A stretch of 64,000 nucleotides of DNA from Thermoleophilaceae bacterium. GTDB lineage: Bacteria; Actinomycetota; Thermoleophilia; Solirubrobacterales; Thermoleophilaceae. The position numbers and the translations under genes are program-made. The notes under the pieces are model-generated. The model did no database searches and had not been told where the DNA came from. It saw only the letters and a list, made by a program, of their open reading frames with translations. Each line of letters opens with the position of its first letter. Within the stretch, counting starts at the first letter, position 1. Below are positions 1 through 18,254 of the stretch, one piece after another. The stretch spans positions 1,833 through 65,832 of the forward strand of contig DATBKS010000246.1 of assembly GCA_036555755.1 (NCBI GenBank), in the 5' to 3' direction.

Positions 1-1775
1 CGCACGCGCTGGCCGGTCTGGATCGTCGACGTGGCGAGACCGGTGCCGGTGACCGCCGGCAGCCCGTACTCGCGGCAGACGATCGCCGCGTGGCTCATCA
101 TCCCGCCGATGTCGGTGACCACCGCGGCCACGCGCGCGAACACGGGGCCCCAGCTCGGCGCGGTGACGGGCGCGATCAGGATCTCGCCCTCCTCCACGTC
201 GCGGAGCTCGGCGGCGTCGAACACCACGCGTGCCACGCCCTCGGCCTCGCCCGGCGCAGCCGCCTTGCCCGACAGGTCGCTGCCGCCGCCACCGCCGAGC
301 CACTTGTTCACGCTCTCCGACGTGATCCCGTAGAGCATGATCGTGAACGGCTCGGTGACCACCTCTGGCGGCTCGTTCATCGCCGGCAGCGCGGGCCGCG
401 AGGAGAGCGCCTCGACGATGCGCTTCCGGCGCTCGATCTCGGCCGGCCAGTGGTACTGCCCGGCGGTCTCGGTGCCCACCGCCCAGCCGTTGCCGTAGTC
501 GAAGATCGCCTGCGGCACCTCGTCGCGGCGGAGGTAGAAGATGTCGTCCGCCTCGTTCCAGAAGCCGGCGTCCGCCAGCACCTGGCCGAGCTCCCTGATC
601 CGGCGCCAGAAGAGCGACATGGACCAGTGCTCGATGTAGAAGTTGTGGTTCTCGACGTAGGGGAACACGAGCCGTGAGAGCCCGAGCTTCTCGTCGAAGG
701 CGGCACGCGCGGCATCGCCCTGGATCAGCTCGCGGTACTCGGCGGTCACGCGGTCGCGCTCCTCCTGGATCGCCGCCGTCGGCCGCTCGATGTCCTCGCC
801 GGCCTTCACGCGCTCGGCGTAATCGCGCACGAAGCCGAGCGGGATGTCGAGGTGGTCGAGCCACACGCGGTCGCTCGAGTACATGCCGCTGCCTGAGGAG
901 AAGTTGAACCACGGGTCCTGCGCGGCCTGCCAGGCGGCGAGCCACTCGGCACCGCGCTCCTGCTCGCCCACCGCGGCCAGCGCCTCGTCCACGCTGCCCC
1001 TCGCCAGCGCGTCGTCCACACCCAGCTCCACGGCGAGCCGCGCGAGCTTCTTCAGCTCGTCGTCGGGGCGGAACAGGTCCACCTCCACGCCCTGCACCAT
1101 CTTCGCGATGCCGAGCTCCGACACCCCAGGCAGCTGCTCCTGGCAGAAGGTGAAGAAGTCGAGGTAGGCGACGTACCCGAGGTTGAGGAACTCGAAGTGG
1201 TACTGGAAGGCCTGATAGGCCAGCTCGATCGCGCGGTTGTAGTTGGCGCTGAACTCGAAGTGCGGGTCGAGCCCCTTGCCGCCGGTGATCCAGTCGATCG
1301 GAACGCGGTCGGGCAGCGGCTCGAACTTGATCGCCTCGAGCCCGGCGATCAGCTCGCGGATCTTCTCGTGCCAGTTCTCGAGCAGTTCGGGCCAGTTCTG
1401 GAAGTAGTGCCCCGCGCGTTCTAGGAACTCCGGCACGCGCCCAGGGATCTCCGCCTCGGGCACCGGCACCGGGCTCATGTAGAGGTAGCCGTTGTGGACG
1501 CGGTAGTCGATCCCGTTGGCCGGCGGGATGATGTAGTGGCGGGTGTTGTACTGGCCGAGGCAGCGGCAGGCGAACTCGACGGTGATCGCGTCGAACGGCT
1601 TGAAGACCACGGGCCAGTGCTGTGTGTCGGCGAACCAGAAGCGCGCCTCCTCCATCTCGCGGCGGTCCTCGCGGAAGTGGAGGTAGTACGGGTAGAGCTC
1701 CTCCCAGCCCTCCGCGCCGGGCGGCGGCGGGTCCTCGTAGGGGCTCGCAAAGCGCTTAATGGTCGGTGTCGACAT
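1..1775 (-). CDS. PEP-utilising enzyme swivel (mobile His) domain protein. It looks like the split partner of a PEP-synthase/rifampicin-phosphotransferase-like system. The C-terminus lies beyond the window edge.
   Basis: Edge-truncated, so absent from the ORF track. Hand translation of the minus strand from ATG ~1775 (GGAGAA 7-8 nt upstream) gives one open frame down to position 1. It starts MSTPTIKRFASPYEDPPPPGAEGWEELYPYY and ends GEILIAPVTAPSWGPVFARVAAVVTDIGGMMSHAAIVCREYGLPAVTG. The latter is the PEP-utilizers mobile-domain signature with the phospho-carrier His. The start overlaps the stop of the upstream gene by ~20 nt. Confidence 0.85.
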   Translation of the reverse strand, partial: MSTPTIKRFASPYEDPPPPGAEGWEELYPYYLHFREDRREMEEARFWFADTQHWPVVFKPFDAITVEFACRCLGQYNTRHYIIPPANGIDYRVHNGYLYMSPVPVPEAEIPGRVPEFLERAGHYFQNWPELLENWHEKIRELIAGLEAIKFEPLPDRVPIDWITGGKGLDPHFEFSANYNRAIELAYQAFQYHFEFLNLGYVAYLDFFTFCQEQLPGVSELGIAKMVQGVEVDLFRPDDELKKLARLAVELGVDDALARGSVDEALAAVGEQERGAEWLAAWQAAQDPWFNFSSGSGMYSSDRVWLDHLDIPLGFVRDYAERVKAGEDIERPTAAIQEERDRVTAEYRELIQGDAARAAFDEKLGLSRLVFPYVENHNFYIEHWSMSLFWRRIRELGQVLADAGFWNEADDIFYLRRDEVPQAIFDYGNGWAVGTETAGQYHWPAEIERRKRIVEALSSRPALPAMNEPPEVVTEPFTIMLYGITSESVNKWLGGGGGSDLSGKAAAPGEAEGVARVVFDAAELRDVEEGEILIAPVTAPSWGPVFARVAAVVTDIGGMMSHAAIVCREYGLPAVTGTGLATSTIQTGQRV

Positions 1776-3948
1776 CCGCGGTTCTCCTTGAGGCCAGTGG
1801 GTTGACGAGGGTCTCGACGAGGCTGCTCATGCCGTGCGAGTACGACGGCGCTGCATCGGGCTCCGGCTCAGTCTTACGCGACCAGACCGTCTCGGGCCTG
1901 CTCTGAAGCAGGACGACGCCCGTTTCGTCGATCGCCCACTCGACGTCCTGGGGACAGCCGTATTCCTTCTCCGCCTGCTTGGCGAGGGCGGCGACCGCCT
2001 TCACTTCATCGGGCGACAGCGAGGGCTTGGCCTGGCGCGCCGGCTCGATCCGCCGCTCCACCACGCCACGACCGCTCGGGTCCGGCACGAGCTCGACGGA
2101 CTTGACCGCGAGCTCGCATTTCAGCGTCTCGAGCATGACCTTGTCGACGACGAAGCTGTCCGGCGTCACCGTCCCACCCACCACGTTCTCCCCGAGCCCG
2201 AAGCTCGACTCGATCGCGATCTTCGAACGGTCGCCGTTGTGGGGGTCGAGCGTCATCGCCACGCCGGCGGCGCGCGGATTCACCATCCGCTGGACCACCA
2301 CGCCCATGCGCATCCGCGAGTCGTCGATGCCGCGGTCCTGGCGATACGCGATCGAGCGGTCCGACCAGATGCTCGCCCAGCAGCGCTTCACGTGCTCGAT
2401 CACCTCGTCCTCACCGACCACCCACAGGTACGTGTCCTGCTGGCCGGCGAAGCTGGCGTCGGCCGAGTCCTCGGCGATGGCGCTCGAGCGCACGGCGACG
2501 GGCACGTCGTCGCCCAGCCGCGCGTACGCAGTGGCGATCGCCTCCGCCACCTCGGGGCTCAGCTCGGTGGCCTTCGTCGTCACCGCGAACCCGGGCGGGA
2601 CCGGGAAGCCCGCCTTGATCGAGGCGCCGAGGCTCGCCGCCTTGCCGCCCACGAGCTCGACGTGGTCCTGCGAGCACGCCTCCAGCGGCACGACCCACGT
2701 GTCCCACTCGGCGAGCACGCTGTGCGGCGCGCGGAAGGTGGTGTTGGGCGCGTAGTGGAACGTCTGGTCCTCGGCCAGGCGCAGGCTCGGGAGCCGGCGC
2801 GTGAGCTCCTGGAGCACGATCTGGGCCTCGAGCCGCGCGAGCGAGGCACCGAGGCAGAAGTGGATGCCGTGCCCGAACGACAGGTGAGCGCGGGCGTTCT
2901 CCCGCTGCAGGTCGACGCTGTCGGGATCGGGAAAGACCTCGTCGTCGCGGTTTGCGGAGCCGAGCAGGAGCAGCACGTTTGCGCCCTCGGGGATGTCGAT
3001 CGTGCCGATCGTGGCCGGGCGCTTGGCCGTGCGCTTCCACGCGAACACCGGCGTGCTGAGGCGCAGGAGCTCCTCCACCGCGTTGGGAATGAGCGACGGG
3101 TCGGCGCACAGCGCCTCCCAGCGATCGCGCTGGGTGAGCAGTGTCTTCAGCCCCTCCGCCAGCAGCGACGCTGTCGTCTCCTGGCCGGCCGTGAGCTGGC
3201 CGTAGACGAGGCCCGCCATCTCGTCGATCGAGATCGACTTGTCGCCCGACTCGTAGATGTGCACGAGGTCGGTCGGGAGATCGTCGCGCGGCTCCTCGAA
3301 GCGCTGCTCGATCAGCTTCAGGCAGTACTGCCAGTAGAGGACGAGGTTCTCGGCGTGGTGGAGCTGCTCCTCTAGCGGCTGGTCGCCGAAGTTGAGGAAG
3401 ATGCGGCTCTCGGCCCACTCCTTGACCTTGAGGGCATCCTCGTCCGGGATCCCGAGCAGGCGGAAGATCACGAACGCGGGCAGATCGCGGGTGAGCGCCG
3501 GCACGAGGTCCACCCGGCCGCGCGTGGCGAAGCGGTCGATCATCGACACAACCAGCTCGCGTACCTCGGGCTCGAGCGTGGCCACGCGCCGCGGCGTGAA
3601 GGCTTTGTTGATGAAGCCGCGCAGGCGCGTGTGCTCCGGCGGCTGGCGCGCCGACAACCCGGAGTAGGCGCGGAACTCGCCGTCGTCGAGCACCTTCTGC
3701 ACCTCCGGCGGCCGCGGTTTGTAGGGCGCCTGGGTGTTCTCGGACGAGAACGTCTTCGGGTCCTTGAAGATCGCCTGGATGTCCTCGTAGCGGCTGACGA
3801 TCCAGTAGCCGAGCTCCTCGCTGAAGAAGACGGGCTCCTCCGCGCGCGCCCGGGCGTAGAAGTCGAACGGGCTGGCGATGTCGAACGGATCGAAGTCCGC
3901 GGACACTCCGTGCGCCGGGCAACCCGGCGGCGGGACCATCTCCCCCAT
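1756..3948 (-). CDS. Cytochrome P450 fused to a PPDK_N (PEP synthase/pyruvate phosphate dikinase ATP-grasp) domain
   Basis: Track ORF, 730 aa. The N-terminal ~415 aa are a P450, with ExxR in AVEELLRL and the Cys-ligand loop FGHGIHFCLGASLA. The C-terminal ~310 aa are PPDK_N-like (VELVGGKAASLG, VAVRSSAIAEDSADASFAGQQDTYL, QDVEWAI). Confidence 0.9.
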   Translation of the reverse strand: MGEMVPPPGCPAHGVSADFDPFDIASPFDFYARARAEEPVFFSEELGYWIVSRYEDIQAIFKDPKTFSSENTQAPYKPRPPEVQKVLDDGEFRAYSGLSARQPPEHTRLRGFINKAFTPRRVATLEPEVRELVVSMIDRFATRGRVDLVPALTRDLPAFVIFRLLGIPDEDALKVKEWAESRIFLNFGDQPLEEQLHHAENLVLYWQYCLKLIEQRFEEPRDDLPTDLVHIYESGDKSISIDEMAGLVYGQLTAGQETTASLLAEGLKTLLTQRDRWEALCADPSLIPNAVEELLRLSTPVFAWKRTAKRPATIGTIDIPEGANVLLLLGSANRDDEVFPDPDSVDLQRENARAHLSFGHGIHFCLGASLARLEAQIVLQELTRRLPSLRLAEDQTFHYAPNTTFRAPHSVLAEWDTWVVPLEACSQDHVELVGGKAASLGASIKAGFPVPPGFAVTTKATELSPEVAEAIATAYARLGDDVPVAVRSSAIAEDSADASFAGQQDTYLWVVGEDEVIEHVKRCWASIWSDRSIAYRQDRGIDDSRMRMGVVVQRMVNPRAAGVAMTLDPHNGDRSKIAIESSFGLGENVVGGTVTPDSFVVDKVMLETLKCELAVKSVELVPDPSGRGVVERRIEPARQAKPSLSPDEVKAVAALAKQAEKEYGCPQDVEWAIDETGVVLLQSRPETVWSRKTEPEPDAAPSYSHGMSSLVETLVNPLASRRTADVDTDH

Positions 3949-4028
3949 ATGCCGACCGTAAGCCGTTCGCTTGTGGGGATCAAGACCGACTACGCGCGGC
4001 TGTGAGCGTTTCTTCCTATCATGGCGCG

Positions 4029-4928
4029 ATGGAGCTACGGCACCTGCACTACTTCGTGGTGGTCGCCGAGGAGCTGCACTTCCGCCGCGCCGCCGAGCGG
4101 CTCCACATCGCCCAGCCGAGCGTGAGCCAGCAGGTGCGCCGGCTGGAGGACGAGCTGGGCGTGCGGCTCTTCGAGCGCAACCGCCGCGGCGTGACGCTGA
4201 CGCCGGCGGGATCCGTGCTGCTCGACGAGGCGCGGCTCACCCTGGCGCAGGCGGCGCGCGCTGCCGAGCGGGCGCGGGAAGCGGGCGCCGGAGAGCGCGG
4301 CCGCTTAAGGGTCAACCTCACCCGCTCCTCCCCGGGCGGCCTCGCCGGCGAGATCGTGGACGCCTATCGCGCCCGCTACCCCGAGGTGCAGCTCGAGCTC
4401 GACGTCGGCCAGACGAGCACCCACGCCGAGCAGCTGCGGCGCGGCACGATCGACATCGCCTTCGTGCGCCCTCCCCTGATCGACTCGGAGCTCGAGGAGA
4501 TCGAGCTCGGACGTGAGCCGCTCGTGTGCGTCCTGCCGCGCGGGCACCGGCTCGCGCGCGAACAGCTGGTGGAGCGCGAGGACCTCGTCGGCGAGCCGCT
4601 CGTGTGGTGGCCGCGCCAGCACGGGCCCGGCGCCTGGGAGGACATGCTCACCGGTGTCTACGGCGAGCACGGCTGGCCTGAGAGCTTCCGCACCGAGCCC
4701 GAGGAGGAGCGCATCCTGTCGGCCGTCGCGGGCGGCGCCGGGGTGAGCTTCATCATGCTCGAGCGCTCGCGCTGGCTGAAGGTGCCGGGCGCGATCTACC
4801 GGCGCTTTGCGCCGCCAGAGCCAACCGTCGGGATCGGACTGGCCTGGCGGCGCGGAAACTCGCTCGCGGTTGTGGATCGCTTCCGCGAGCTTGCGGTGGA
4901 GATGGCCGCCGTCAGGCGACCTCGTTGA
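4029..4928 (+). CDS. LysR-family transcriptional regulator
   Basis: Track ORF 4002..4928. The conserved LysR HTH N-terminus MELRHLHYFVVVAEELHFRRAAERLHIAQPSVSQQVRRLEDELG begins at Met10 (4029). The gene is divergent from the P450 fusion gene. Confidence 0.9.
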   Translation: MELRHLHYFVVVAEELHFRRAAERLHIAQPSVSQQVRRLEDELGVRLFERNRRGVTLTPAGSVLLDEARLTLAQAARAAERAREAGAGERGRLRVNLTRSSPGGLAGEIVDAYRARYPEVQLELDVGQTSTHAEQLRRGTIDIAFVRPPLIDSELEEIELGREPLVCVLPRGHRLAREQLVEREDLVGEPLVWWPRQHGPGAWEDMLTGVYGEHGWPESFRTEPEEERILSAVAGGAGVSFIMLERSRWLKVPGAIYRRFAPPEPTVGIGLAWRRGNSLAVVDRFRELAVEMAAVRRPR

Positions 4929-5418
4929 CCGTCCCGCTCTTCACGTCGTAGACGAAGCCGCGGATCACGGCGTCGGAAGCGATGAGGTCCGAGTCGCGCA
5001 GGAACTCGACGTCGTCGCGGACCGCCTGCTCGAGGTCGCTGAACGGGCGGAAGTCGATCCCGCTCGGGTCGCCGCCGGAGGCGTCCGCGACCTTCTCCGC
5101 GATCTGCTCGTTCGTGTACTTGCCCATGCCGCAGTCGGTGTGGCGGATGACGGCGATCTCGTTCGTGCCGAGCAGGTGCTGCGACACGGCGAGCGAGCGC
5201 AGCGCCTCGCGGGCCTCGCCGCCGGCGTTGCGGATCACGTGAGCCTCGCCCTCCTCGAGCCCGAGGAAGCGCGCGGGAATGAGGCGCGCGTCCATGCAGG
5301 TCACGATCGCGACCTTGCGGCTCGGCGGGCTCGCCAGGTCTCCGTGGGCGAAGTCGCGGGCGTAGTCCGTGTTCGCCGCGACGAGCTCGTCGATCACGCT
5401 CTGGGTGGTGTTAGACAT
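4912..5418 (-). CDS. Beta-class carbonic anhydrase
   Basis: 168 aa. Zinc-ligand contexts VTCMDAR and RHTDCGM. A GGAGG RBS lies upstream of the ATG. Confidence 0.85.
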   Translation of the reverse strand: MSNTTQSVIDELVAANTDYARDFAHGDLASPPSRKVAIVTCMDARLIPARFLGLEEGEAHVIRNAGGEAREALRSLAVSQHLLGTNEIAVIRHTDCGMGKYTNEQIAEKVADASGGDPSGIDFRPFSDLEQAVRDDVEFLRDSDLIASDAVIRGFVYDVKSGTVNEVA

Positions 5419-5511: not shown

Positions 5512-7119
5512 TCAGACCTTGAACTGCCCGGCGAGCTCCTCGAGCTCCCCGGCGACCGCGGTGAGACCCTCGGCCGCACTCTGCGACTGCTGGATACCCG
5601 ACACGAACTCGCTGGTCGCCTGGCTTGTCTCGTGCATGCCGGTCGCGATCTGATCGAGACCCGCGTTCTGCTGCTGCACGGACGCCGCGATCTGCTGTGC
5701 GGACTGCTCCACCGCGTGGTTCATCTCCGCGAGCTGGGCGATGATCTGCCCGGCGCGTCCGGCCAGCTCGGTGCCGTGCTCGACCACCTCGGTGCCCTCC
5801 TGCGCCGCCGTCACGGCCGCGTGGGTGGCGCGCTCGATCTCTTCGAGGATCGCCTGCACCTGGGTAGTCGCCTGCTTCGACTGCTCGGCGAGGTTGCGCA
5901 CCTCGTCGGCGACGACCGCGAAGCCCTTGCCCTGCTCGCCGGCACGGGCGGCCTCGATCGTCGCGTTCAGCGCCAGCAGGTTGGACTGGTCGGCCAGGTC
6001 GTTCACGGCGTTCGTGATCTCGCCGATCTGAGCGGTCTGCTCGGACAGCGCCTGCACGTCGCCGGCGATGGCCGCGACCTTGTCGCGGATATCGCCCATG
6101 CCGTGCACGATCGCGTCGACAGCCTCGCTGCCCTCGTCGGACACCCGGACGGCCTCCTGGGCCTGCTCCGCCACCTCGCCGGCGTTCTGCGCGGCCTGCT
6201 CGGCCGAGGCGCGGATCTCGTCGGTCGCGGTGGTGGTCTGGTTGATCGCGGCGGACTGCTGGTTGGCGCCCGCCGTCTGCTGGTTCACCGTCGCCAGGAT
6301 CTCCGTGGCGCTCGAGCTGACGGTATGGGCGCTCTCCTGCATCCGGCCGGTGGTGTTGGCGAGACCCTCGACCATCTTGTTGAGGTTCTCCGCGAGCCGC
6401 GTGAGCGCGTCGCCGCCGCGCGGCTCGATGCGTCCGGTCAGGTCACCGTCGGCCACCCGCGCCGCGAAGCCGGAATACTCGTTGATGCGCGGCACGAGGT
6501 TCTTGATCATGAACGTCACGCCGCCGATCGCGATTGCCAGGCCGATCAGCAGCACGACCAGGAGAAGCGTGCGCCTGGAGCTGTAGGTCGAGTCGGCGCT
6601 GTCCTTGCCGTCCTTCGCCTCGGCCTCGTTCAGCTTCATGAGCTTGTCACTCGCCGCGAGGGCGGTCGCGGTGATCGCCTTCACCTGATCGCCAACCTTC
6701 TCGTCGCCGCTCTTGAGCGCACCGCTCTCCTGCAGGGCCGCCAGCTTCTTGTAGGCGCTGGCCTGCGGGGCCACCTGCGCTGCCTCCTCGGGCACGTCGC
6801 TGTGCAGGTCCGTGGTCGCCTTGAGGTTGCTTGCGAACTCGGCAAGCGTCTTCGTCAGCTCGCCGTCGCGCTGGCGCTGCCCCGCGCCGCGGGCAGCGAG
6901 GAGAACGCCGAGCGCGTCCTGGCCCGCGTGCGTGATCGACCCACCGGTGAGGCCGTCCTGCTTCGTCTGGTCGACCTGGAAGCTCAGGTTCTTGGCACCG
7001 CTGTCGAGCTTGGAGGCGGCCGTGAGGCCGACGACGCCGATCAGCAGCATCGTCACGCTTACGACGCCGAGCAGAACACCGAGCTTGTGGGAGATCTTCA
7101 ACTGCGGCAGAGCCCTCAT
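5512..7119 (-). CDS. Methyl-accepting chemotaxis protein (two TM helices, HAMP, MCP signalling domain)
   Basis: 535 aa. N-terminal TM helix, a second TM followed by HAMP, and the conserved signalling hairpin [44 protein letters not shown]. Confidence 0.9.
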
Positions 7120-7243: not shown

Positions 7244-9490
7244 CTAATGCAAAAGGGCGATGTCGAGCGCCTCGATGAGCAGCTCGACGTGCTCGTCGCC
7301 GAAGACGAGCGGCGGGCGGATCTTCAGTACGTCGTCGCGCGGCCCGGTCCGGCTTACGAGGACGCCCTTCTCGCGCATCGCATCGACCACGGCCCCTGCC
7401 CGCGCCGAGTCGTCCAGCTCGACGCCGACGAGCAGGCCCATGCCGCGCACGTCGACGATCGACGGGTGCTTTTCGCGTAGCGCCGAGATGCGCTCCTGGA
7501 GCAGGTCGCCCACGCGCCGCGCGTGCGGCACGAGCCGCTCGTCCTCGATCACGTCGAGCACTGCGAGCGCCGCCTGGGCCGCGACGGGGTTGCCGCCGAA
7601 CGTGCTGAAGATGCGCCGCGCAAACGCGTAGTCCTCCACCAGCTCGCGCCTGGTGACCAGCGCCGCCACCGGATAGCCGTTGCCCATTGGCTTGCCGAGC
7701 GTGACGAAGTCGGGGCTGATGCCCAGGTCCGCGAACGCCCACAGGTGGCCGCCGCCGCGGCCGTGGCCCACCTGCACCTCGTCGGCCACAAAGAGGCCGC
7801 CAGCGTCGTGCGTGGCCTGGACGATCGAGGCGAGGCCCTCTCGTGTCGGCGGGTGGATGCCGTCGCTCGTGTTGCCCGCGTCGATGAACGTCGCGGCCAG
7901 CCCGTGTCCCGCGCTGTCGAGTTGCGCCGCCGCGGCGCTGACGTCCTCGCCGCCGCCTAGGGCGGAGATCCGCGCGACGTGCTCAGGCGCGAACCCCTCC
8001 GGCCACTCCTCGGGCGAGAGGTCGGCGAGCGCGGCGGTCACGCCGTGATAGGCGTGCTGCGTGACGATCGCGCCGCCGTTCCCCGTCGTGCCGGTGGCGA
8101 TCCGCCAGGCCAGCTCGTTGGCCTCGCTGCCGGAGTTGACGAGCATGACGTGATCGAGTCCCGCCTCCGGGGGCATCGACGCGAGCAGGCGCTCGGCGAG
8201 CTCGATCAGCGGCTCGTACAGGTAGCGGGCGTGGGTGTTGAGCGTGCGCGTCTGGCGCACCACCGCCTCGGTCACGCGCGGATGGCAGTGCCCGACCACC
8301 GGCACGTTGTTGTAGGCGTCGAGCAGGCGGCGGCCGTCGGCGTCGAACAGCCACGCGCCCTCGCCGCGCACCACGTGGACGGGATCGTCGTAGGTCAGCC
8401 GCGTGAGCACGGAGCCGAAGGCGTCTGCCCGCCGGCGCACGAGCGCGTCCTTCGCTGCGAGCGGCTCGGCCGCGCCGAGCTCGCGCGAGAAGCGGTCGGC
8501 CCCGATCTCGCCGAGGTGCTCGAGCAGCACCCAGGAGTCGTCGTCCCACGACTGGATGTACTCGGCGTTCTCCGGGTAGCGCGCGGTGCGCCAGGCGCTG
8601 ATTACGACGATCGCGGCGAGGCGCGTCGCGACCAGATCGCCGAGCACCTCCAGCTCGTCGGGCTCGAGCGGGATGCGCGACTGGTAGCCGTCGGTCGCGA
8701 TGCGCGCGACGCGGAAGATGTCCTCGAGCGGGCGGCCGCGGATGAGCGAAGCGAGCGCGATGGCGAAGTCGCCGACCTGCGCCGTGTGGCCGACATCGCC
8801 GAAGTCGACGATCCCGGAGATGCGCCCGGCATCGTCGAGCAGCACGTTGTCGAGGCTCAGGTCGCCGTGAACGACCTGCGCGCGCAGCCGCGGCCAGCGC
8901 GGCGCCACGTGCGCGTCGTAGCGGTCGAGCACCGACTCCACGAGGCGGCGCCGCTCGCCGTCGGCGATCGAGTCGGTCAGTGGGCGGAGGCTCGCCGCAC
9001 GGGCGAGGTCCCACAGCAGCTCGCCGCCGGCGGCCGGGTGGAAGAAGCTCCGCAGCGCGAGGTTGAGTCGCGCATGGGTCGCGCCGTAGTCGTACGCGGC
9101 GCGGTCCGTCAGCTCGGGCCCGCCCGTGTGTCCCTGCATCCGCTCGAACAGGCGCACGAAGTGCGTCCCGTCCGGCCCGTCGACCGTCGTGCGGTAGGCG
9201 GCCGCGCCCACACCCTCCGACACGACCTGCGGCTGCGCCACCGGCAGCTCCGGATCGACCCGCCCGATGTGCAGGATCGCCCCCGCCTCGAGGTCGAGCG
9301 TGTCCGGATCCTGGCCGAGGTTCGAGATCTTGACGACCCCCGACCGGTCCGCGCCCTCGACGAGAAACGTCTGGTCCCGCTCGCTGCCGAGATCGCGCGC
9401 CGTGCCCTCGAGGCCGAACAGCTCGGAAGCGATGCGGGCCACCTCGTCAGCGGTGAATCGTGGCGGCGTGGCCTCGAGAACGGAGCTCAC
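7244..9490 (-). CDS. Fusion protein: APH/choline-kinase-type phosphotransferase plus class-III aminotransferase-fold (phospho-lyase-like) domain
   Basis: 748 aa. The N-terminal part has the kinase motifs [13 protein letters not shown] and IVDFGD. The C-terminal part has class-III PLP-enzyme motifs [11 protein letters not shown] and [11 protein letters not shown]. Confidence 0.85.
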
Positions 9491-9499
9491 GCCCCGATC

Positions 9500-9946
9500 C
9501 TAGGCCAGCTCGAGCCGTCCGAACTTGCCGCGGAAGTACGCCAGCGGCGCGCCGGGCCGCGCACTTGCCACGAGCGCCTCGGCGATGAAGACGATGTGGG
9601 TGCCGGCGGTCACCTGCTCCGTAACCTGGCACTCCACGTGCGCGAGCGCGTCGGCGAGCAGCGGACCGGTGAACGCGCCGCCGGCAAGCTCCACGTCGGC
9701 GAACTTGTCGCCCCCCTTGCGCGCGAAGTTCACCGCCAGCTCCCCGTGCTCCTCCCCGAGGATGTTGATGGCGAAGCTCCCACGCTGCGCGATCGCAGCG
9801 CCGGTGGCGGATTCCTTGTTCATTGCGATGAGCACCATCGGCGGCTCGAGCGACAGCGAGGTGACGGCGCTGGCCGTCGTGCCGTAGGGCGTGTCGCCGA
9901 GCATCGTCGTCACCACAGTCACGCCGCTGGCGAAGTGGCCGATCAC
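9500..9946 (-). CDS. Flavin reductase domain protein
   Basis: 148 aa. Flavin_Reduct signature FASGVTVVTT...SLSLEPPMVLIAMNK. GTG start per track. It is in the same frame as the upstream gene (see finding). Confidence 0.85.
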   Translation of the reverse strand: MIGHFASGVTVVTTMLGDTPYGTTASAVTSLSLEPPMVLIAMNKESATGAAIAQRGSFAINILGEEHGELAVNFARKGGDKFADVELAGGAFTGPLLADALAHVECQVTEQVTAGTHIVFIAEALVASARPGAPLAYFRGKFGRLELA

Positions 9947-9982
9947 GTGGCGGAACTCCTCGGAGCTGAGCCGGCGCGTAGG

Positions 9983-10800: not shown

Positions 10801-12006
10801 TCAGTCGGCCCGTGGGCCCCAGCGGAACCCTCCGGAGAGCCGGTAGGCGGCGTGCTGAAGCAGACGGCGGCGCGGGTAGCGCCAGCAGCGCAGCGAGTGG
10901 TGCCCCTCGTGCATAAGGCAGATATTGCAGGAGGTACAGTCCACCCGCCGGGTTCGCCCCTCGGCGATCAGGCGGGCGAGCGCCGGCTCGCGGATGAACG
11001 GCCGCGCCATCGCCACGAAATCGGCTTCGCCCGAGGCCACCAGGGCGTTCATCGTCTCGGGACGGCGCATACCGCCCACGGCAACCAGCGTCGTGTCCAC
11101 CTCCTCGCGCACTCGACGCAGCCAGGGCATGAAGTACGCCTCCTCGGCGGGCTCGGACAGCAGCCGGTGGAAGAGGAGATCCTCCGCCGCGCGCCGACGG
11201 TCGACCGCCACGTACTGCCGCGCCGAGTCGGTGGCCGCGCTCATCACGCCGCACGAGATCTCGAGCGCGTCGAGGCCGGCCTCCACGAGCAGGGCGGCCA
11301 CCCGGGCGGACTCGGCGATGTCCAGGCCACCCGGCGGGGCGTCCACCATCCCGAGCTTCATCGTCAGCGCCCTGTCGGCGGGCACGACCGCGCGCACCGC
11401 CTTGGCCACCTCGAGCGCGAAGCGAGCGCGCCGCGCCGGATCGCCACCCCAGTCATCGTCGCGGCGGTTGGTGAGCGGCGACAGAAACTCGCTGATCAGG
11501 TAGCCGTTGGCGCCGTGGATGTGCACGCCGTCGAAGCCTGCGGAGAGCACCCGCCGCGCGCCATCGGCGAACGCGGCGACCGCCTCCTCGATCTCCTCCG
11601 AGCTGCCCGCGGGCACGTGCCGTCCGGTGAGGGCGTTCGGCACCGCGGAGGGGGCAAGCGTCGAGACGCCTTCCACACGCGACTGGCTGCCGGCGTGTGC
11701 GACCTGGCCGAGCACCAGGCCGCCGGCGCGGTGCACGGCATCCGTAAGGCGCTGCAAGCCCGGTATCAGGCGGTCGTCGTAGACGCCCGTCTGGCGCCGG
11801 GCGTACTGGCCGCGCGGATGGCAGTAGAGGTGACCGGTGAAGATCGCGCCGACGCCGTTCGCCGCAAGGGTCTCGTAGAGCCCGATGAGCTTGTCCGTGA
11901 CGGCGCCATCCTGCGCCGCCATCGTCTCGGAGGTGCCGGCCCGGATCAGCCGGTTGCGTGTGGTGAGCGGCCCGAGCGAGCCCTCGGCGAGCAGCGCCTC
12001 GGTCAT
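10801..12006 (-). CDS. Old-Yellow-Enzyme-family NADH:flavin oxidoreductase with a C-terminal 4-Cys (Fe-S-like) motif
   Basis: Starts at Met139 of track ORF 10801..12420, in an ATGA overlap with the nitrilase stop. OYE TIM-barrel N-terminus MTEALLAEGSLGPLTTRNRLIRAGTSE...QVAHAGSQS. The C-terminus reads CTSCNICLMHEGHHSLRC (Cx2Cx2Cx10C). Confidence 0.85.
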   Translation of the reverse strand: MTEALLAEGSLGPLTTRNRLIRAGTSETMAAQDGAVTDKLIGLYETLAANGVGAIFTGHLYCHPRGQYARRQTGVYDDRLIPGLQRLTDAVHRAGGLVLGQVAHAGSQSRVEGVSTLAPSAVPNALTGRHVPAGSSEEIEEAVAAFADGARRVLSAGFDGVHIHGANGYLISEFLSPLTNRRDDDWGGDPARRARFALEVAKAVRAVVPADRALTMKLGMVDAPPGGLDIAESARVAALLVEAGLDALEISCGVMSAATDSARQYVAVDRRRAAEDLLFHRLLSEPAEEAYFMPWLRRVREEVDTTLVAVGGMRRPETMNALVASGEADFVAMARPFIREPALARLIAEGRTRRVDCTSCNICLMHEGHHSLRCWRYPRRRLLQHAAYRLSGGFRWGPRAD

Positions 12007-12851
12007 GGCTCCCGAAGGACGACGTCGTAGACGTCCGTGCGGCGATCCGCGCGCGGCTGGATCAGCGGGTCGCGCACCTGGGCGCGTTCCGCCTCCGCCA
12101 GGTCGATCTCCGCGATCGCGAGGCCGGTTTCGGTGCCGGACAGCGGCCCCACCGCGCGCTTTCCGAACGGGTCCACGAGAAGCGATGAGCCGAGGAACTC
12201 GAGCTCCGTCACCGCGCCGACCTGCGAAGCGCAGGCGATGAACACCTGGTTCAAGTTGGCCTGGAGCTGGGCTCCGTGAGCCTGGGGCGCGAGCCCGTTC
12301 GCGTCCCAGCGCACCTTGTCGAACCCGGTGACCCAGGCGGTGGGCACGCAGATCAGCTCGGCGCCGGCCAGTGCGAGCAGGCGGGCCACCTCGACGAAGC
12401 GAAGGTCGTAGCAGACGCACAGGCCCACACGTCCGAACGCGAGGTCAGCCACCGGCAGCCCGAGGTCGCCGGGCTCGAAGGCCTGCTTCTCCTCGCGGAA
12501 CGGGTGGAGCTTGCGGTAGTGGAGCAGTACGCCGCCCGGGCCGACCACGACGGCCGTGTTGTAGAGGCGGTCCCCGTCCCGCTCGCAGAAGCCGCCGGCG
12601 ATCCAGCCGTCGGCGTCGGCGGCGAGCGCGGTCCAGGCCTGCGTCGATGGGCCATCGACCGGCTCGGCCACATCCGCCAGCCGCTCGCGGTCCGCCACAT
12701 AGCCGGGAACGATCAGCTCGGGGAGGACGACGAGTTGCGCGCCGCGCTCGAAGGCGTGGCGCGCGGTGAGCACTGTCAGCTCGCGATTCTCGTCTGCGGC
12801 ATACGGCTGCCCGGTGATCTGGGCGAGCGCGACGGCCAGCGGCCGCTTCAC
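12003..12851 (-). CDS. Carbon-nitrogen hydrolase (nitrilase superfamily)
   Basis: 282 aa. Catalytic-triad contexts VVLPELIVPGY, YRKLHPF and VCYDLRF. GTGA overlap with the upstream gene stop. Confidence 0.85.
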   Translation of the reverse strand: MKRPLAVALAQITGQPYAADENRELTVLTARHAFERGAQLVVLPELIVPGYVADRERLADVAEPVDGPSTQAWTALAADADGWIAGGFCERDGDRLYNTAVVVGPGGVLLHYRKLHPFREEKQAFEPGDLGLPVADLAFGRVGLCVCYDLRFVEVARLLALAGAELICVPTAWVTGFDKVRWDANGLAPQAHGAQLQANLNQVFIACASQVGAVTELEFLGSSLLVDPFGKRAVGPLSGTETGLAIAEIDLAEAERAQVRDPLIQPRADRRTDVYDVVLREP

Positions 12852-13618
12852 GACAGGTCGGCGGGGAGGACGCCGGCGGCCTTCAGCATTCCGACGTCGG
12901 CCGGGCAGGGACCGCCGACGCTCACCACCGGACTACCGCGGTCGGCCTTCACCCGATGCTGGATGCCGGGCGGCACCTGGATCGCCTGCCCCGCCTCGAA
13001 CTCGAGCGCGAAGCCGTGCGTGAGGTCCTCGACCGTGCCGCAGCCGGACACGATGTAGATCGTGTCCTCGGAGTCGGCGTGCGCGTGCGGCACGTTCTCC
13101 TCCCCCGGCTGCATGCTCACGTAGTTCATGTTCGCGTTGCGCGCTCCGACGCCGAGCCAGACGACGAGCCGCGCATCTGAGGCGATCATCGGCAGCATCA
13201 CATCGGGGTTGTCGCGGTGGAAGATCCTGATCGCGCCCGGGTCGGCCTCGTTCTCCCCGTCCGCGTCCACGCCCTCGTAGACGCCGGCGTCCGGCGGCGA
13301 CGGGCCGCCGATCAGCTCGAGCCCATCCGCCCCGGCCTCGAAGACGTAGGCGGCGCCGGCCGCGACGTGCACCATCGAGCCTTCCTCGAGCTGCTCTCCC
13401 GCCACGCTGCCGCTTCCGCCGAGGACGTAGTAGACGGCCTCGTCCTGGTGGCGCTGGCGGCGGGTGCGCGCACCGGCTCCCAGCAAGATGAGGTGCATCG
13501 AGCGGAACTCCGCCCCAACGTCGGGCCAGACCAGGGCCCGCGCGCTCCCCTCACCCTCCACGAGGTCGATGCTCGGCCCGTCGGGGCCCAGCACCTGCAC
13601 CCCCTCGGCGCCGATCAT
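12848..13618 (-). CDS. Bicupin-type cupin domain protein
   Basis: 256 aa. The second barrel carries a metal motif, VPHAHADSEDTIYIVSG. ATGA overlap with the upstream cupin gene. Confidence 0.7.
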   Translation of the reverse strand: MIGAEGVQVLGPDGPSIDLVEGEGSARALVWPDVGAEFRSMHLILLGAGARTRRQRHQDEAVYYVLGGSGSVAGEQLEEGSMVHVAAGAAYVFEAGADGLELIGGPSPPDAGVYEGVDADGENEADPGAIRIFHRDNPDVMLPMIASDARLVVWLGVGARNANMNYVSMQPGEENVPHAHADSEDTIYIVSGCGTVEDLTHGFALEFEAGQAIQVPPGIQHRVKADRGSPVVSVGGPCPADVGMLKAAGVLPADLS

Positions 13619-13983
13619 CGCGGCTCCTCCGTGGCCACCGTGTAGGCGTTCGGGGTCTCGCGCCGCGGCACGATGATCGCCAGGAACCTCGCGCCCGCAG
13701 CGCTTGCGCGAATCCCGTGCTCAACCTTCGGCGGAATCACCGACCAGTCACCCGGCGCGAGCTGCTTGACCTCCCCCGCGACCGTGAGCTCGACCTCGCC
13801 CTCCTGGATCAGGGTGATCTGCTCCTGCGGATGGCTGTGGAGCGGGAACTCCGCCGCGGCATCGAAGTCGTACTGGGTCACGGTCGCACCCTGGCTGTCG
13901 AGCGCACGCCGCCGCACGCCGGGCCAGGGCTCGTCCATCGGGAGCTCGGCGAAGCTCCCCTCGATTGGCGTCGGTGCGCTCAC
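13615..13983 (-). CDS. Small cupin domain protein
   Basis: Track ORF 13615..14112. GTG at residue 44 (13983) forms a GTGA overlap with the cyclase stop. Met59 (13938) is an alternative start. Cupin motif FPLHSHPQEQITLIQEGEVE...PPKVEHG. Confidence 0.7.
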   Translation of the reverse strand: MSAPTPIEGSFAELPMDEPWPGVRRRALDSQGATVTQYDFDAAAEFPLHSHPQEQITLIQEGEVELTVAGEVKQLAPGDWSVIPPKVEHGIRASAAGARFLAIIVPRRETPNAYTVATEEPR

Positions 13984-14728
13984 TCGTCGACGAAGGCCAC
14001 TACGCGGCATGGCGAGGCTTCGCCCCCTTCGATTGGAATCGGGAAGGCGCCGATCAGGCAGCGCCGGTTCAGGACCTTCTCCATATCCCCGCCCATGTTC
14101 TCGACGTGGCACACGCCGGCGCCGAACGGCACGCGGTGCATCACGAAGATGTCGTCGGCGGGGAACACGTCGTCAATCGGCTTGCCGATCTTCTGCTCGT
14201 ATGCGCGCGCCGCGTCCTCGCGCTTATAGCGGATGCTCGTGTTCATCGGGTGGTCGCCCGAGGCGCAGTCGAAGCCGGTCCACGCGAACTGCATTTCGGC
14301 CACCCACTCGGCGAACTCGCGGTCGCCGCCCGGGTGACGCAGGAAATAGCGCTGCTCGTCCTCCTGGTCGGCGCCGTTGTAGTAGTGGTGGTAGCCCGTG
14401 TGGTAGATGAGGATGTCGCCCTTCTGCACCTCCATCTTGTCCGTGATGTGGTGGGGCTTGATCACGGACCAGTCCTCCACCACGTCCGAGACATCGACGA
14501 TCACACCGGGACGGCAGAGCTGGTCGATCGGGATCGATCCGATGTCGTTCCCGCCGGAGATGATGTGCATCTCGCTGTCGAAGTGCGTGCCGCTGTGAAG
14601 AGGGAGCTCGAGCAGCTGGGAGACGATTCCGTTGGTCGCATGCCGCTGGAAGTACGACAACTTCGGCGAGGGATATCCCACCCAGCCTGGGGTGTGGATC
14701 GTGAACTTGTGCGTCAGGTCGACCGGCT

Positions 14729-14732
<4 letters not shown>
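13980..14732 (-). CDS. Cyclase-family protein (kynurenine-formamidase-like metal hydrolase)
   Basis: 250 aa. Cyclase-family motif HSGTHFDSEMH. ATGA overlap with the small-subunit gene stop. Confidence 0.85.
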
Positions 14733-15240
<508 letters not shown>

Positions 15241-15244
<4 letters not shown>

Positions 15245-17601
15245 GCCGCCCGCCTCTCATGCGCGAGCTCCACCACGCGCTCCGGGGTGAGCGGCAGCGT
15301 CTTCGCCTCACTGCCGAGCGCATCGGACAGTGCGTTGGCGATCACCGCGCCCGCGGCGGCGGTTCCACCCTCGCCGGCGCCCTTGACGCCAAGCGGGTTG
15401 AGTGGCGTCGGGGCGTCCTCCGTGATCTCCACGCGGACGTCCGGCATCTCTCCGGCGGTCGGCATCAGGTAGTCCATGAACGAGCCCGCCACGAGCTGGC
15501 CCGACTCGTCGTAGGCGAACTCCTCGAGCAGCGCGCCGCCGAGGCCCTGCGCCACGCCGCCGACGATTTGTCCTTCGACGAGCTTCGGGTTGATCGCGCG
15601 CCCCACGTCGTACGTGACGGCGTAGCGGTGAATGTGGACGGCCCCGGTGTCGACGTCAACCTCGAGCGCGACGCAGTGAAGGCCGTAGGGGAATGCCATG
15701 TCCGGCGAGTCGAAGTAGGCCTCCTCCTCGAGGCCCGGGTCGTCGCCGCGGGAGAGCGCCGCGCCGGCGTGAGCCGAGGACGCGAGCTCGCTGAGCGGCA
15801 CGCCCACCGCCGGCGAGCCGCGCACGATCACGCGGTCGCCCTCGATGGTCAGGTCGCCCGCCGAGGCCTCGAGCCGCTCAGCGGCCAGTTCGAGCAGGCG
15901 GGCGCGCAGCATCTCGGCGGCGCGCGCGATCGCGCTCCCTCCGAGCATCGACGCGCGACTGCCGAAGGCGCCCATGCCCTCGGGCACGGAATCCGTGTCG
16001 CCATGGCGCACCGTCACCGCGTCGTAGGGCACGCCGAGCGTCTCGGCGCAGACCTGGGCGAGCACTGTGTCGACGCCCTGGCCGACCGAGGCCGAGCCCA
16101 CGTGGACGATCGTGCCGCCGTCGCTGCCCACGCCCACGCGCGCGTACTCCCAGCGGGCGATGCCGCTCTTCTCGACGAAGTAGCCGACGCCGACGCCGCG
16201 GCGGCGCCCGGGCTCCGGCTCCTCGCCTCGCCAACGCAGCATCTCCTCGTAGCCGAAGCACGCCAGGCCCTTGTCGAGGAGCAGCGGATAGTCGCCGCTG
16301 TCGAAGACGACGGGATGGCCGTCCGTGTGCGTGCCGACGCGGTAGGGCATCAGCTCCGGTGCGATCAGGTTCTGGCGGCGCACGTCGGCCGGATCGCGGC
16401 CAAGCCGCCGGGCCGCGATGTCGATCATGCGCTCGCGAATGAAGTTGGCCTCGTAGCGGCCGGGCGCCCGGTAGGTGCCCGCTGGCGTCTTGTTGGTGAC
16501 GACCTGGTGCGCGACGCAATCGTAGGCGCGCCAGGCGTAGGGACCAGGCAGCAGCGCGGCGGTCATCCCCGGCACCACCGACCCGTGGGTGCGCACATAC
16601 GCGCCCGTGTTCATCGCGAAGCGGTCGCGCATCGCGAGCAGGGTGCCGTCGGAGCGCAGCGCCAGCTCCACGTCGTGGACCTGCTCGCGCGAGTGGTTAA
16701 GGGCGCGTAGGTTCTCCTCCCGGTCCTCCGTCCACGCGACGGGATGTCCCTGCTTGAGCGCGCAGAACGGAATCAGGAAGTCCTCCGGGTAGAACTCGCC
16801 GCGCCCGCCGAAGCCGCCCCCAACGTCCAACTCCACAAGACGCACCTGCTGCTCGGTGAGTCCCAGAAGCCCCGCGAGGATCCGGCGGTTGGTGTGCACC
16901 ACCTTGGCCGCGCCCCATACCGTGAGGCGGCCGCTGCGCGGCTCGAGCTCGGCCAGCAGCCCGCGCGGCTCGAGCGGCACGGCGCCGTGCCGCTGGCAGC
17001 TGAGGCGCTCGCGGACCGTGAGGTCCGCCTCGGCGAAGGCGGCATCAACGTCGCCCCACGCGATGTGAATCTCGCCGGCAAGGTTGGAACCCGCCTCCGG
17101 GTGGAGCACCGGGCTGCGCGGGTCGAGGGCGAGGTCAGGATCGAGCAGCGGGTCGAGCGGCTCGTAGACCACCTCGATGCGGTCGAACGCGTCTTCGGCC
17201 GCGTAGCGCGACTCCGCGATCACCACCGCGACGGGCTCGCCCGAGTAACGCACGACGCCGTCGGCGAGCGGGGGCTGAAGCAGCAGCTCCATCCCCGGCA
17301 GCGGATACATTCGCATGGGGATGCGCGCGACCGGCTGAGGCAGGTCGGCGCTCGTGATCACATCCACCACGCCCGGCTCGGCCAGCGCGGCGGACGCGTC
17401 GATCGACGTGATCCGCGCGGCTGCGTGCGGGCTGCGCAGGATCGCGGCGTGCAGCGCGTCTCGGCGGTTGAGGTCGTCGATGAAGCAGCTGCGGCCGGTG
17501 AGGAGCGGCAGGTCCTCCTTACGAGGCAGCGACAGCCCGATCACGCGCTCGGTTGTGCCGTCGCGGCCCGCCGGGTCCGCGTCTGAGCGGCTGCCTACCA
17601 C
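15241..17601 (-). CDS. Mo-hydroxylase large subunit (xanthine dehydrogenase/CoxL family), paralogue A
   Basis: C-terminal 786 codons of track ORF 15241..18171. GTG at 17601 overlaps the CoxG-like stop; the alternative GTG at 17544 gives VIGLSLPRKEDLPLLTG. Motifs DVGGGFGGRGEFYPEDF, GTYRAPGR and GVKGAGEGG. It is not the CODH form-I AYxCSFR type. Confidence 0.9.
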
Positions 17602-18254
17602 CGGTACCTGATCTCGAGCCACACCCCGCGCCGCCGGAAGCGCTTGCCGAACAGCAGCGCGAGCAGAAGCGCCAGCAGTCCGGCGGCGCCGGCCCGGGCG
17701 AGCGGAGTGGGCACCGAGGGCACGGACGGAGCAGCCGGATGTTCCTCTTCCGGCAGGGACGCCGGAGGCCTGGACGGGAGCGCGGCGGCGGCGGGCTGTG
17801 GCACACGGGAAGCGCGCTCGCCAAGGCTGCGCTCCAGGTTGGTCGCGAGCTCTCCGAGCAGGCGCTCTGCCTCGGCGCGCGCGCTGTCCTCCGACACGCC
17901 GGTCGCGGCCAGCCGGCCGTCGAGCGTGAGCGACACGCGGGCCGCGCCATTCGAGCCGTCGACGCGAGCCCTCAACAGCCCGCTGGCGAATCCCGGCCCC
18001 GCGGCGTCGCGCACGCGCAGCAGGCAGCTCGCGCTGTGGCCGTCCTCGTCGACATCGACGGAGCGCAGCGTGCCAACGAGATCGAGCGGCGTGGAGCCGA
18101 CGGTGGGCGTGAGCTTGCCCTGCAGTGTCTGATCGCCGTTGACGCGGGCGAGCGCGGAACCCGGCAGGCATGCGCCCAGCTGCTCCAGGTCGAGCAGCTC
18201 CGCCCAGACCCGGTCGGCCGGCGCGCTAACGGTGAATTCGGTCTCGAGGAGCAT
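17595..18254 (-). CDS. CoxG-like SRPBCC protein with C-terminal TM anchor, copy 1
   Basis: 219 aa. N-terminus MLLETEFTVSAPADRVWAELLDLEQLGACLPG, then a Pro/Ala linker, then the hydrophobic tail AGAAGLLALLLALLFG followed by basic residues. AGGAGG RBS. Confidence 0.85.
   Translation of the reverse strand: MLLETEFTVSAPADRVWAELLDLEQLGACLPGSALARVNGDQTLQGKLTPTVGSTPLDLVGTLRSVDVDEDGHSASCLLRVRDAAGPGFASGLLRARVDGSNGAARVSLTLDGRLAATGVSEDSARAEAERLLGELATNLERSLGERASRVPQPAAAALPSRPPASLPEEEHPAAPSVPSVPTPLARAGAAGLLALLLALLFGKRFRRRGVWLEIRYRW

Follow-up and report, generated by a model that had tools for sequence, protein, structure and literature searches.

What is the function of a gene that joins a cytochrome P450 to the ATP-binding half of a dikinase, and in which order do the two activities act? 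This question is raised by one end of a 64,000-nucleotide (nt) stretch of DNA from a Thermoleophilaceae bacterium (assembly GCA_036555755.1, contig DATBKS010000246.1, positions 1,833 to 65,832), which is hereafter called the window. A single open reading frame (ORF) of 730 amino acid residues (aa) encodes a P450 domain followed by an ATP-grasp domain of the pyruvate phosphate dikinase (PPDK) type, and it overlaps the gene for a protein with a phospho-carrier histidine. Comparison of the sequences makes it quite likely that a Cre-type catabolic operon for alkylphenols (4-cresol-like) begins at this locus, with creJ and creI merged into one gene. The chemistry of the fused system is very probably the known Cre chemistry, because every component is an orthologue of a component of this characterised pathway and the gene order is the same. 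The features of the locus are as follows.

1756 to 3948, minus strand: creJ-creI fusion gene, one ORF, 730 aa, stop codon at 1756-1758
2698 to 3948, minus strand: CreJ-like P450 domain, fusion residues 1-417
1759 to 2697, minus strand: CreI-like ATP-grasp (PPDK_N) domain, fusion residues 418-730, no linker to the P450
1 to 1775, minus strand: creH-like gene that runs off the window edge, with 591 aa visible out of about 604
1756 to 1789, minus strand: junction of the fusion gene and the creH-like gene, with Shine-Dalgarno sequence AAGGAGA at 1783-1789, ATG at 1773-1775 and a 20-nt overlap at 1756-1775
4029 to 4928, plus strand: LysR-type regulator, divergent, with Pfam domains HTH_1 and LysR_substrate
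3949 to 4028: intergenic region between the LysR gene and the fusion gene, 80 nt, divergent, putative promoter/operator from reading of the sequence

Components and gene order of the locus

Pfam detects both p450 (E 3e-23) and PPDK_N (E 2.5e-89) in the 730-aa ORF, in agreement with an earlier note on this DNA, which had recognised the two domains in one frame from motifs that are all present. The P450 domain contains the ExxR motif as EELLR (residues 292-296, nt 3061-3075), the heme loop FGHGIHFCLG (residues 358-367, nt 2848-2877) with Cys365 as the heme ligand, and the I-helix motif TAGQETT with its acid-alcohol pair (nt 3172-3192). These three motifs are invariant in 75 fused homologues. The P450 part is 44% identical to CreJ from Corynebacterium glutamicum over 415 aa (blastp, E 4e-123). 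Its top sequence match in the Protein Data Bank (PDB) is 5gwe/5xjn (E 5e-112), and the next matches are the heme domains of CYP116B enzymes (4e-86). When the AlphaFold2 (AF2) model of the fusion protein is compared with known structures by Foldseek, the CreJ structures are again the top matches (TM 0.93, rmsd 2.5 Å). The PDB titles of these matches are 'cytochrome P450 CREJ' and 'CREJ in complex with (4-ethylphenyl) dihydrogen phosphate' (5xjn). A vitamin D ligand that is given for 5gwe in one citing paper is evidently a mix-up and is not used here. The fused clade forms one group with the Deinococcales proteins and with the canonical CreJ clade, whose members (Corynebacterium, Arthrobacter, Micrococcus and others) are all unfused, in 185 of 200 bootstraps of a neighbour-joining (NJ) tree built from P450 domains. 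Judged by its modelled fold, its motifs, its closest characterised relative and its clade, the P450 domain is assigned to the CreJ type.

The ATP-grasp part is 45% identical to CreI over 327 aa (blastp, E 5e-83). It contains GGKAASLG at fusion residues 434-441 (nt 2626-2649), and the ATP-grasp motifs GGK, VAVRSSA, QDVEWA and LLQSRPET are all present and invariant in the 75 fused homologues. We take the GGK, VRSS, D-x-E and Q-x-R motifs to correspond to the nucleotide- and Mg-binding catalytic residues of PPDK. Degeneration of the ATP-grasp residues, which the earlier note had named as a finding that would refute its proposal, is not observed.

The partner gene is absent from the ORF list because ORFs running off an end go unlisted. 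Minus-strand translation below position 1900 gives a second frame from the ATG at 1775 to the window edge; the earlier note had placed the start of an unlisted second gene at about 1775 with an overlap of about 20 nt, and the overlap is exactly 20 nt. The Shine-Dalgarno sequence AAGGAGA is located 7 nt 5' of the ATG of the creH-like gene, within the end of the fusion gene, where the Arg-Arg codons of the tail encode it. AGGAG occurs within the tail Arg codons in all Thermoleophilia loci examined. To judge from this arrangement, the fusion gene and the creH-like gene are tightly translationally coupled.

The tail of the fusion protein also contains the motif TL[IV]NPL (residues 713-718, nt 1795-1812), which is conserved in the fused and Deinococcales clades and missing from C. 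glutamicum CreI. With a pLDDT below 50, this motif is predicted to be disordered. It may serve as a peptide by which CreH docks, or the ribosome-binding site of the next gene, which overlaps the tail, may constrain it.

The partner protein is 56% identical to CreH over 588 aa (blastp, E-value 0). It carries GGMMSHAAIVCREYGLP at residues 557-573, inside the Pfam PEP-utilizers domain, with His562 encoded at nt 90-92, as expected from the earlier assignment of the phospho-carrier histidine to the second gene. Its sequence GGMMSH562 aligns with the swivel-His motif GGLMTH of rifampicin phosphotransferase, and the residue before the swivel His is Ser, as in CreH and PpsA (PMC12167813). The partner scores 930 bits against NCBIfam model NF006150 (cut-off 650) despite being cut by the window edge, and CreH scores 1418 bits. 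NF006150 is the top subfamily for both proteins, and the ranking of the sister models is identical for both. On the basis of this ranking and the identity to CreH, the partner is placed in the CreH (alkylphenol) subfamily, not in the Hpe/Pps group, and is predicted to hold a phenol-binding region and a swivel phospho-His domain. A 'middle region' ahead of the His domain, as described earlier, is present, but it is N-terminal and roughly 500 aa long; it is 'middle' only by analogy with the single-chain rifampicin phosphotransferase.

The cre locus of C. glutamicum, recovered with the 5gwe sequence, consists of an IclR gene, creJ (P450, 428 aa), creI (PPDK_N, 364 aa), creH (PEP-utilizers, 633 aa), creG (short-chain dehydrogenase/reductase, SDR), creF (2Fe-2S ferredoxin), creE (reductase), creD (HD) and creC (aldehyde dehydrogenase, ALDH). 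This order agrees with the published cre gene table (PMC7764795). The J-I-H order of the window is the same as that of C. glutamicum (Du et al. 2016 JBC, Du et al. 2017 PNAS; PDB 5gwe, 5xjn), with orthologous parts and a divergent regulator. The two loci differ in that creJ and creI are separate genes in C. glutamicum and one gene here, in that I and H are separated by a gap of 46 nt there and overlap by 20 nt here, and in that the regulator is of the IclR type there and of the LysR type in the window's clade. In an 88%-identical relative (L002), the H gene is followed by an HD gene, whose product is 43% identical to CreD, and then by an SDR gene, whose product is 56% identical to CreG. The operon of the window's clade (L002, L007 and L018, relatives of 74-88% identity) reads JI-H-HD-SDR and contains no ALDH gene, while other clades insert an ALDH gene and a second HD gene. 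About 35 loci, which come from three phyla, share the overall arrangement of a divergent regulator and JI-H-HD-(ALDH)-(second HD)-SDR.

The LysR-type protein is probably the regulator of the operon. It is kept at the same position in relatives with 64-88% identity, and an IclR gene occupies this position in other clades and in C. glutamicum. The divergent LysR gene had been recognised earlier, and only its start is shifted, from GTG 4002 to the more likely ATG 4029. At the start of the fusion gene (3907-3948), the annotation of an identical metagenome protein (P0001) begins at a GTG located 14 codons downstream of ATG 3948. The longer start at ATG 3948 is more likely, because the CP(A)H motif upstream of this GTG is conserved family-wide.

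Spread and origin of the fusion

When the 90%-identity clusters of a collection of 5.8 billion proteins are searched, both Pfam domains are found in all of the 120 best-scoring clusters, with lengths of 685-800 aa, so that at least 120 clusters are fused. In a scan of one genome per GTDB species, 44 loci are found, and the P450 and ATP-grasp domains lie in a single uninterrupted ORF in 26 of them. Fused isolates are Solirubrobacter soli DSM 22325, which is among the 26 species genomes, and Capillimicrobium parvum. The carriers belong to Thermoleophilia (Thermoleophilaceae, Solirubrobacteraceae and Capillimicrobium) and Chloroflexota (Oscillochloris, Chloroflexaceae and Roseiflexaceae). The nearest genome is a Thermoleophilaceae metagenome-assembled genome (MAG) with 80% identity, and a 100% identical protein (P0001) is encoded on a JGI metagenome contig. 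Clustering at 50% identity leaves one full-length representative, and the fused proteins therefore form a compact clade. Other long P450 matches in the 50%-cluster library were considered as independent fusions to PPDK_N and rejected; they are tandem P450s, reductase fusions of the CYP116 type or fragments of the same family.

The fusion is almost certainly neither a product of assembly or frameshift error nor a pseudogene in decay. Broken frames do occur across the P450, ATP-grasp and H genes in five loci from nanopore-derived MAGs (L035, L042, L043, L045 and L050), but the ORF is intact in 26 independently assembled species genomes, isolates included, the 120 best clusters are fused, and the catalytic motifs are all invariant. 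The residues of the P450, of the ATP-grasp domain and of the junction are highly conserved among the 75 fused homologues. In the AF2 model built on the alignment of these homologues (pLDDT 86, pTM 0.79), the junction residues 410-430 are ordered, and disorder is confined to the last ~30 residues. The artefact that the earlier note had set out as a possible refutation is thus not what is found. The frame breaks in the five loci represent either homopolymer sequencing errors or pseudogenisation.

In public data, the fused proteins are annotated only as 'cytochrome P450' or 'hypothetical protein'. No description of a fusion of a P450 to PPDK_N or PEP synthase is found in the searchable literature, and the fused architecture is, as far as can be told, undescribed. 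The earlier statement that no characterised P450 has such an architecture holds for the fusion, but the uncharacterised machine that it implied does not, since the parts are orthologues of Cre proteins. Likewise, the characterised family with a known, different role that had been considered as a counter-argument exists for the components and not for the fusion.

Four Deinococcales loci indicate how the two genes may have been joined. The P450 encoded there is 62% identical to that of the window, and creJ and creI are separate genes. At the very point of fusion, the stop codon of the P450 gene overlaps the start codon of creI in the sequence ATGA (one locus reads TGAATGATGA). The Deinococcales P450 ends with EWEVV, and the following protein begins with MNPFVLPFEAC, whereas the window reads EWDTWVVPLEAC across the same site. 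To judge from these sequences, the most likely origin of the fusion is a one-base frame change, at a stop/start overlap ATGA of the kind seen in Deinococcales. Such a change would give an essentially linkerless fusion, as observed. The locus therefore offers a clean example of gene fusion via an ATGA overlap, of which both the unfused and fused states are kept in living relatives. In the P450 NJ tree, the fusions of Thermoleophilia and those of Chloroflexota form one cluster in only 11 of 200 bootstraps. The tree does not fix the branching among Thermoleophilia, Chloroflexota and Deinococcales, and the fusion may have happened once or twice.

Two Thermoleophilia genomes encode a P450 that belongs within the fused clade (65-72% identity), with no adjoining ATP-grasp or CreH genes: L036 (1344-4029) consists of IclR, P450, HD and SDR genes, and L030 (8001-9994) consists of P450 and SDR genes. 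The kinase looks to have been secondarily lost or relocated in these genomes, and the lack of an adjoining kinase raises the question of where the phosphorylated substrate of the P450 comes from. In a Solirubrobacteraceae genome (L028, 1183-3758, minus strand), a second, unfused dikinase pair in the order H then I is located ~4 kb upstream of the fused cre-like operon. It is about 43% identical to the dikinase of the operon and may be a paralogue of the Hpe or Pps type.

Proposed pathway and its alternatives

CreHI starts 4-cresol catabolism by phosphorylating the phenolic hydroxyl group (PMC12167813, PMC7764795, PMC9618137). HpeHI, CreHI and PpsAB are related to rifampicin phosphotransferase and have two components: the I subunit is the ATP-grasp protein, and the H subunit contains one domain for substrate binding and one with the swivel His (PMC12167813). 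CreJ is the alkyl-oxidising P450 of a system that consists of CreH, CreI, CreJ, redox partners and CreD, and it accepts a range of p- and m-alkylphenols (PMC9549646). In this pathway, an aryl phosphate is the substrate of CreJ, and an HD phosphohydrolase takes the phosphate off later. By analogy, the kinase of the window probably acts first, and its product, an aryl phosphate, is then oxidised by the P450 at the alkyl side chain. The CreI-like ATP-grasp domain would bind ATP and load His562 of the separate CreH-like protein, which would pass the phosphate to the hydroxyl group of an alkylphenol to give an aryl phosphate, AMP and Pi. The CreJ-like P450 domain would bind the aryl phosphate and oxidise its para-alkyl (benzylic) carbon with O2, and a ferredoxin/reductase pair encoded elsewhere would supply the electrons. 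A CreG-like SDR and a CreD-like HD phosphohydrolase, encoded beyond the window edge, would oxidise the alcohol and remove the phosphate. The sequences themselves show the homology, the order of the genes, the intact catalytic motifs, the conserved fusion and the translational coupling. The substrate, the order of the reactions and any benefit of the fusion, such as a constant ratio of the two domains or direct passage of the aryl phosphate between them, are what we infer.

The earlier proposal of a two-polypeptide machine, in which a P450 and a split ATP-grasp/swivel-His dikinase act on the same small molecule, is borne out by these comparisons, as is the placement of the kinase in the split group of phenylphosphate synthase. 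The same proposal had the P450 hydroxylate first and the dikinase phosphorylate the new hydroxyl group, which is the reverse of the order in the Cre pathway. Hydroxylation as the first step is improbable. The presence of both activities in one operon and one polypeptide is compatible with either order, but CreJ, the closest characterised P450, has been crystallised with an aryl phosphate ligand. CreJEF is reported to take only phosphorylated intermediates (Du et al. 2016). CreHI, HpeHI and PpsAB all phosphorylate a pre-existing phenolic hydroxyl group as their first step (PMC12167813), and the HD phosphohydrolase in the operon of the relatives fits a transient phosphate handle that is removed later. 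It is very improbable that the phosphorylation primes a phenol or a hydroxyphenylethanone for carboxylation, as in the Hpe and Pps pathways, and that the role of the P450 is unrelated. The dikinase family is common to both pathway types, and HpeI (9goj) is a structural match to the ATP-grasp domain, but its identity is 36%, compared with 45% for CreI, the partner falls into the CreH subfamily of NCBIfam, and carboxylase genes are found neither in the window nor in the about 35 related operons. That the same protect-then-oxidise chemistry serves another substrate, such as 4-ethylphenol or other lignin- or plant-derived para-alkylphenols, is rather unlikely; the ALDH-less pathway would then end in an aldehyde or ketone (e.g. 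4-hydroxyacetophenone) and not in 4-hydroxybenzoate. The JI-H-HD-SDR operons without ALDH in the window's clade would fit such a product, and CreJ takes 4-ethylphenyl phosphate (5xjn) as well as the range of alkylphenols mentioned above (PMC9549646). Nothing specific speaks against another substrate, but the ALDH could be encoded elsewhere; L002 has an ALDH gene three genes upstream, on the other strand.

Several points weigh against the assignment of the locus to a Cre-type alkylphenol operon. The identities to the characterised enzymes CreJ, CreI and CreH are only 44-56%, so that another phenol could be the physiological substrate. The ATP-grasp domain of the window lacks, in the alignment, a 42-aa helical insert that is present in CreI and in most fused relatives. 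The window stops inside creH, and the HD and SDR genes are therefore predicted here from the relatives of 74-88% identity. The operon ALDH (CreC-like), which is present in C. glutamicum and many fused relatives, is missing in the window's clade, so that the end product may differ. CreE reductase and CreF ferredoxin are encoded in the operon of C. glutamicum, but homologues of them are found neither in the 64-kb window nor in related operons. This result extends to the whole window the earlier observation that no ferredoxin or reductase gene is adjacent. Likewise, no homologues of CreD and CreC and no small Fe-S ferredoxin motifs are found in the window. Pfam detects only p450 and PPDK_N in the fusion protein, with no fused FMN/FAD/Fe-S reductase domain, and among the related loci a reductase-like gene is nearby only in L014, on the opposite strand.

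Other systems share parts with this locus but differ from it. HpeHI from Rhodococcus rhodochrous GD02 and AcvAB from Sphingobium SYK-6 are likewise two-component ATP-grasp and swivel-His enzymes that phosphorylate the phenolic hydroxyl group first (PMC12167813), but the Hpe pathway has no P450, and its phosphorylated product goes to a biotin-dependent carboxylase. PpsAB(C) from Thauera aromatica shows the same split into an ATP-binding subunit and a His subunit and phosphorylates a phenol with formation of AMP and Pi (PMC12167813, citing Schmeling 2004), but this system works anaerobically, with phenylphosphate carboxylase as the next enzyme, and involves no oxygenase. Rifampicin phosphotransferase (PDB 5fbs, 5hv1) contains the same three modules (ATP-grasp, substrate-binding domain and swivel His), but here they form one chain, the enzyme serves to inactivate an antibiotic, and no P450 is associated with it. 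The self-sufficient P450s (CYP116B/P450-RhF; PDB 6kbh, 6laa), whose heme domains are the next-best matches after CreJ, likewise have a C-terminal partner, but this partner is an electron-feeding reductase/ferredoxin. The architecture of the window's protein is unusual because the fused partner of the P450 is not a reductase but half of the upstream pathway enzyme.

The fusion may be adaptive, although this is doubtful, instead of being a neutral accident at the ATGA overlap. CreH would then dock on the fused ATP-grasp domain and release the aryl phosphate beside the access channel of the P450, and the resulting metabolon would shield the intermediate from cellular phosphatases. If this is true, it would be the first natural P450 that is joined to its substrate-making enzyme rather than to its electron donor. 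New chemistry is not revealed by the fusion. With the Cre-type assignment, the unusual strategy of phosphorylating a phenol before its side chain is oxidised is no longer confined to a few Actinomycetales but also covers Thermoleophilia, Chloroflexota and Deinococcota, which are soil-abundant, little-studied groups. A natural single-chain CreJ-CreI protein could also simplify or improve the engineered CreHI/CreJ/CreD biocatalyst for alkylphenol oxidation (PMC9549646).

Other genes in the window

The gene next to the LysR gene encodes a beta-carbonic anhydrase (4912-5418, minus strand), and the two genes overlap by 17 nt on opposite strands at the 3' end of the LysR gene. Beside it is a gene for a methyl-accepting chemotaxis protein with HAMP and MCPsignal domains (5512-7119, minus strand). 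Both genes are also present on the 100%-identical metagenome contig (L006). The region 7244-9490 (minus strand) encodes a 748-aa fusion of an APH-type phosphotransferase to a class-III aminotransferase (Pfam APH and Aminotran_3), and a flavin reductase gene follows at 9500-9982. The region 12003-18225 (minus strand) contains genes for a CN-hydrolase, a bicupin, a kynurenine-formamidase-like cyclase, and the 2Fe-2S small and molybdopterin large subunits of a xanthine-dehydrogenase-family enzyme. The 2Fe-2S protein at 14729-15256 was considered as a ferredoxin partner of the P450 and rejected, because it is the small subunit of the xanthine-dehydrogenase family and is encoded beside its Mo subunit. 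This cluster may serve in N-heteroaromatic catabolism and appears to be unrelated to the cre-like genes.

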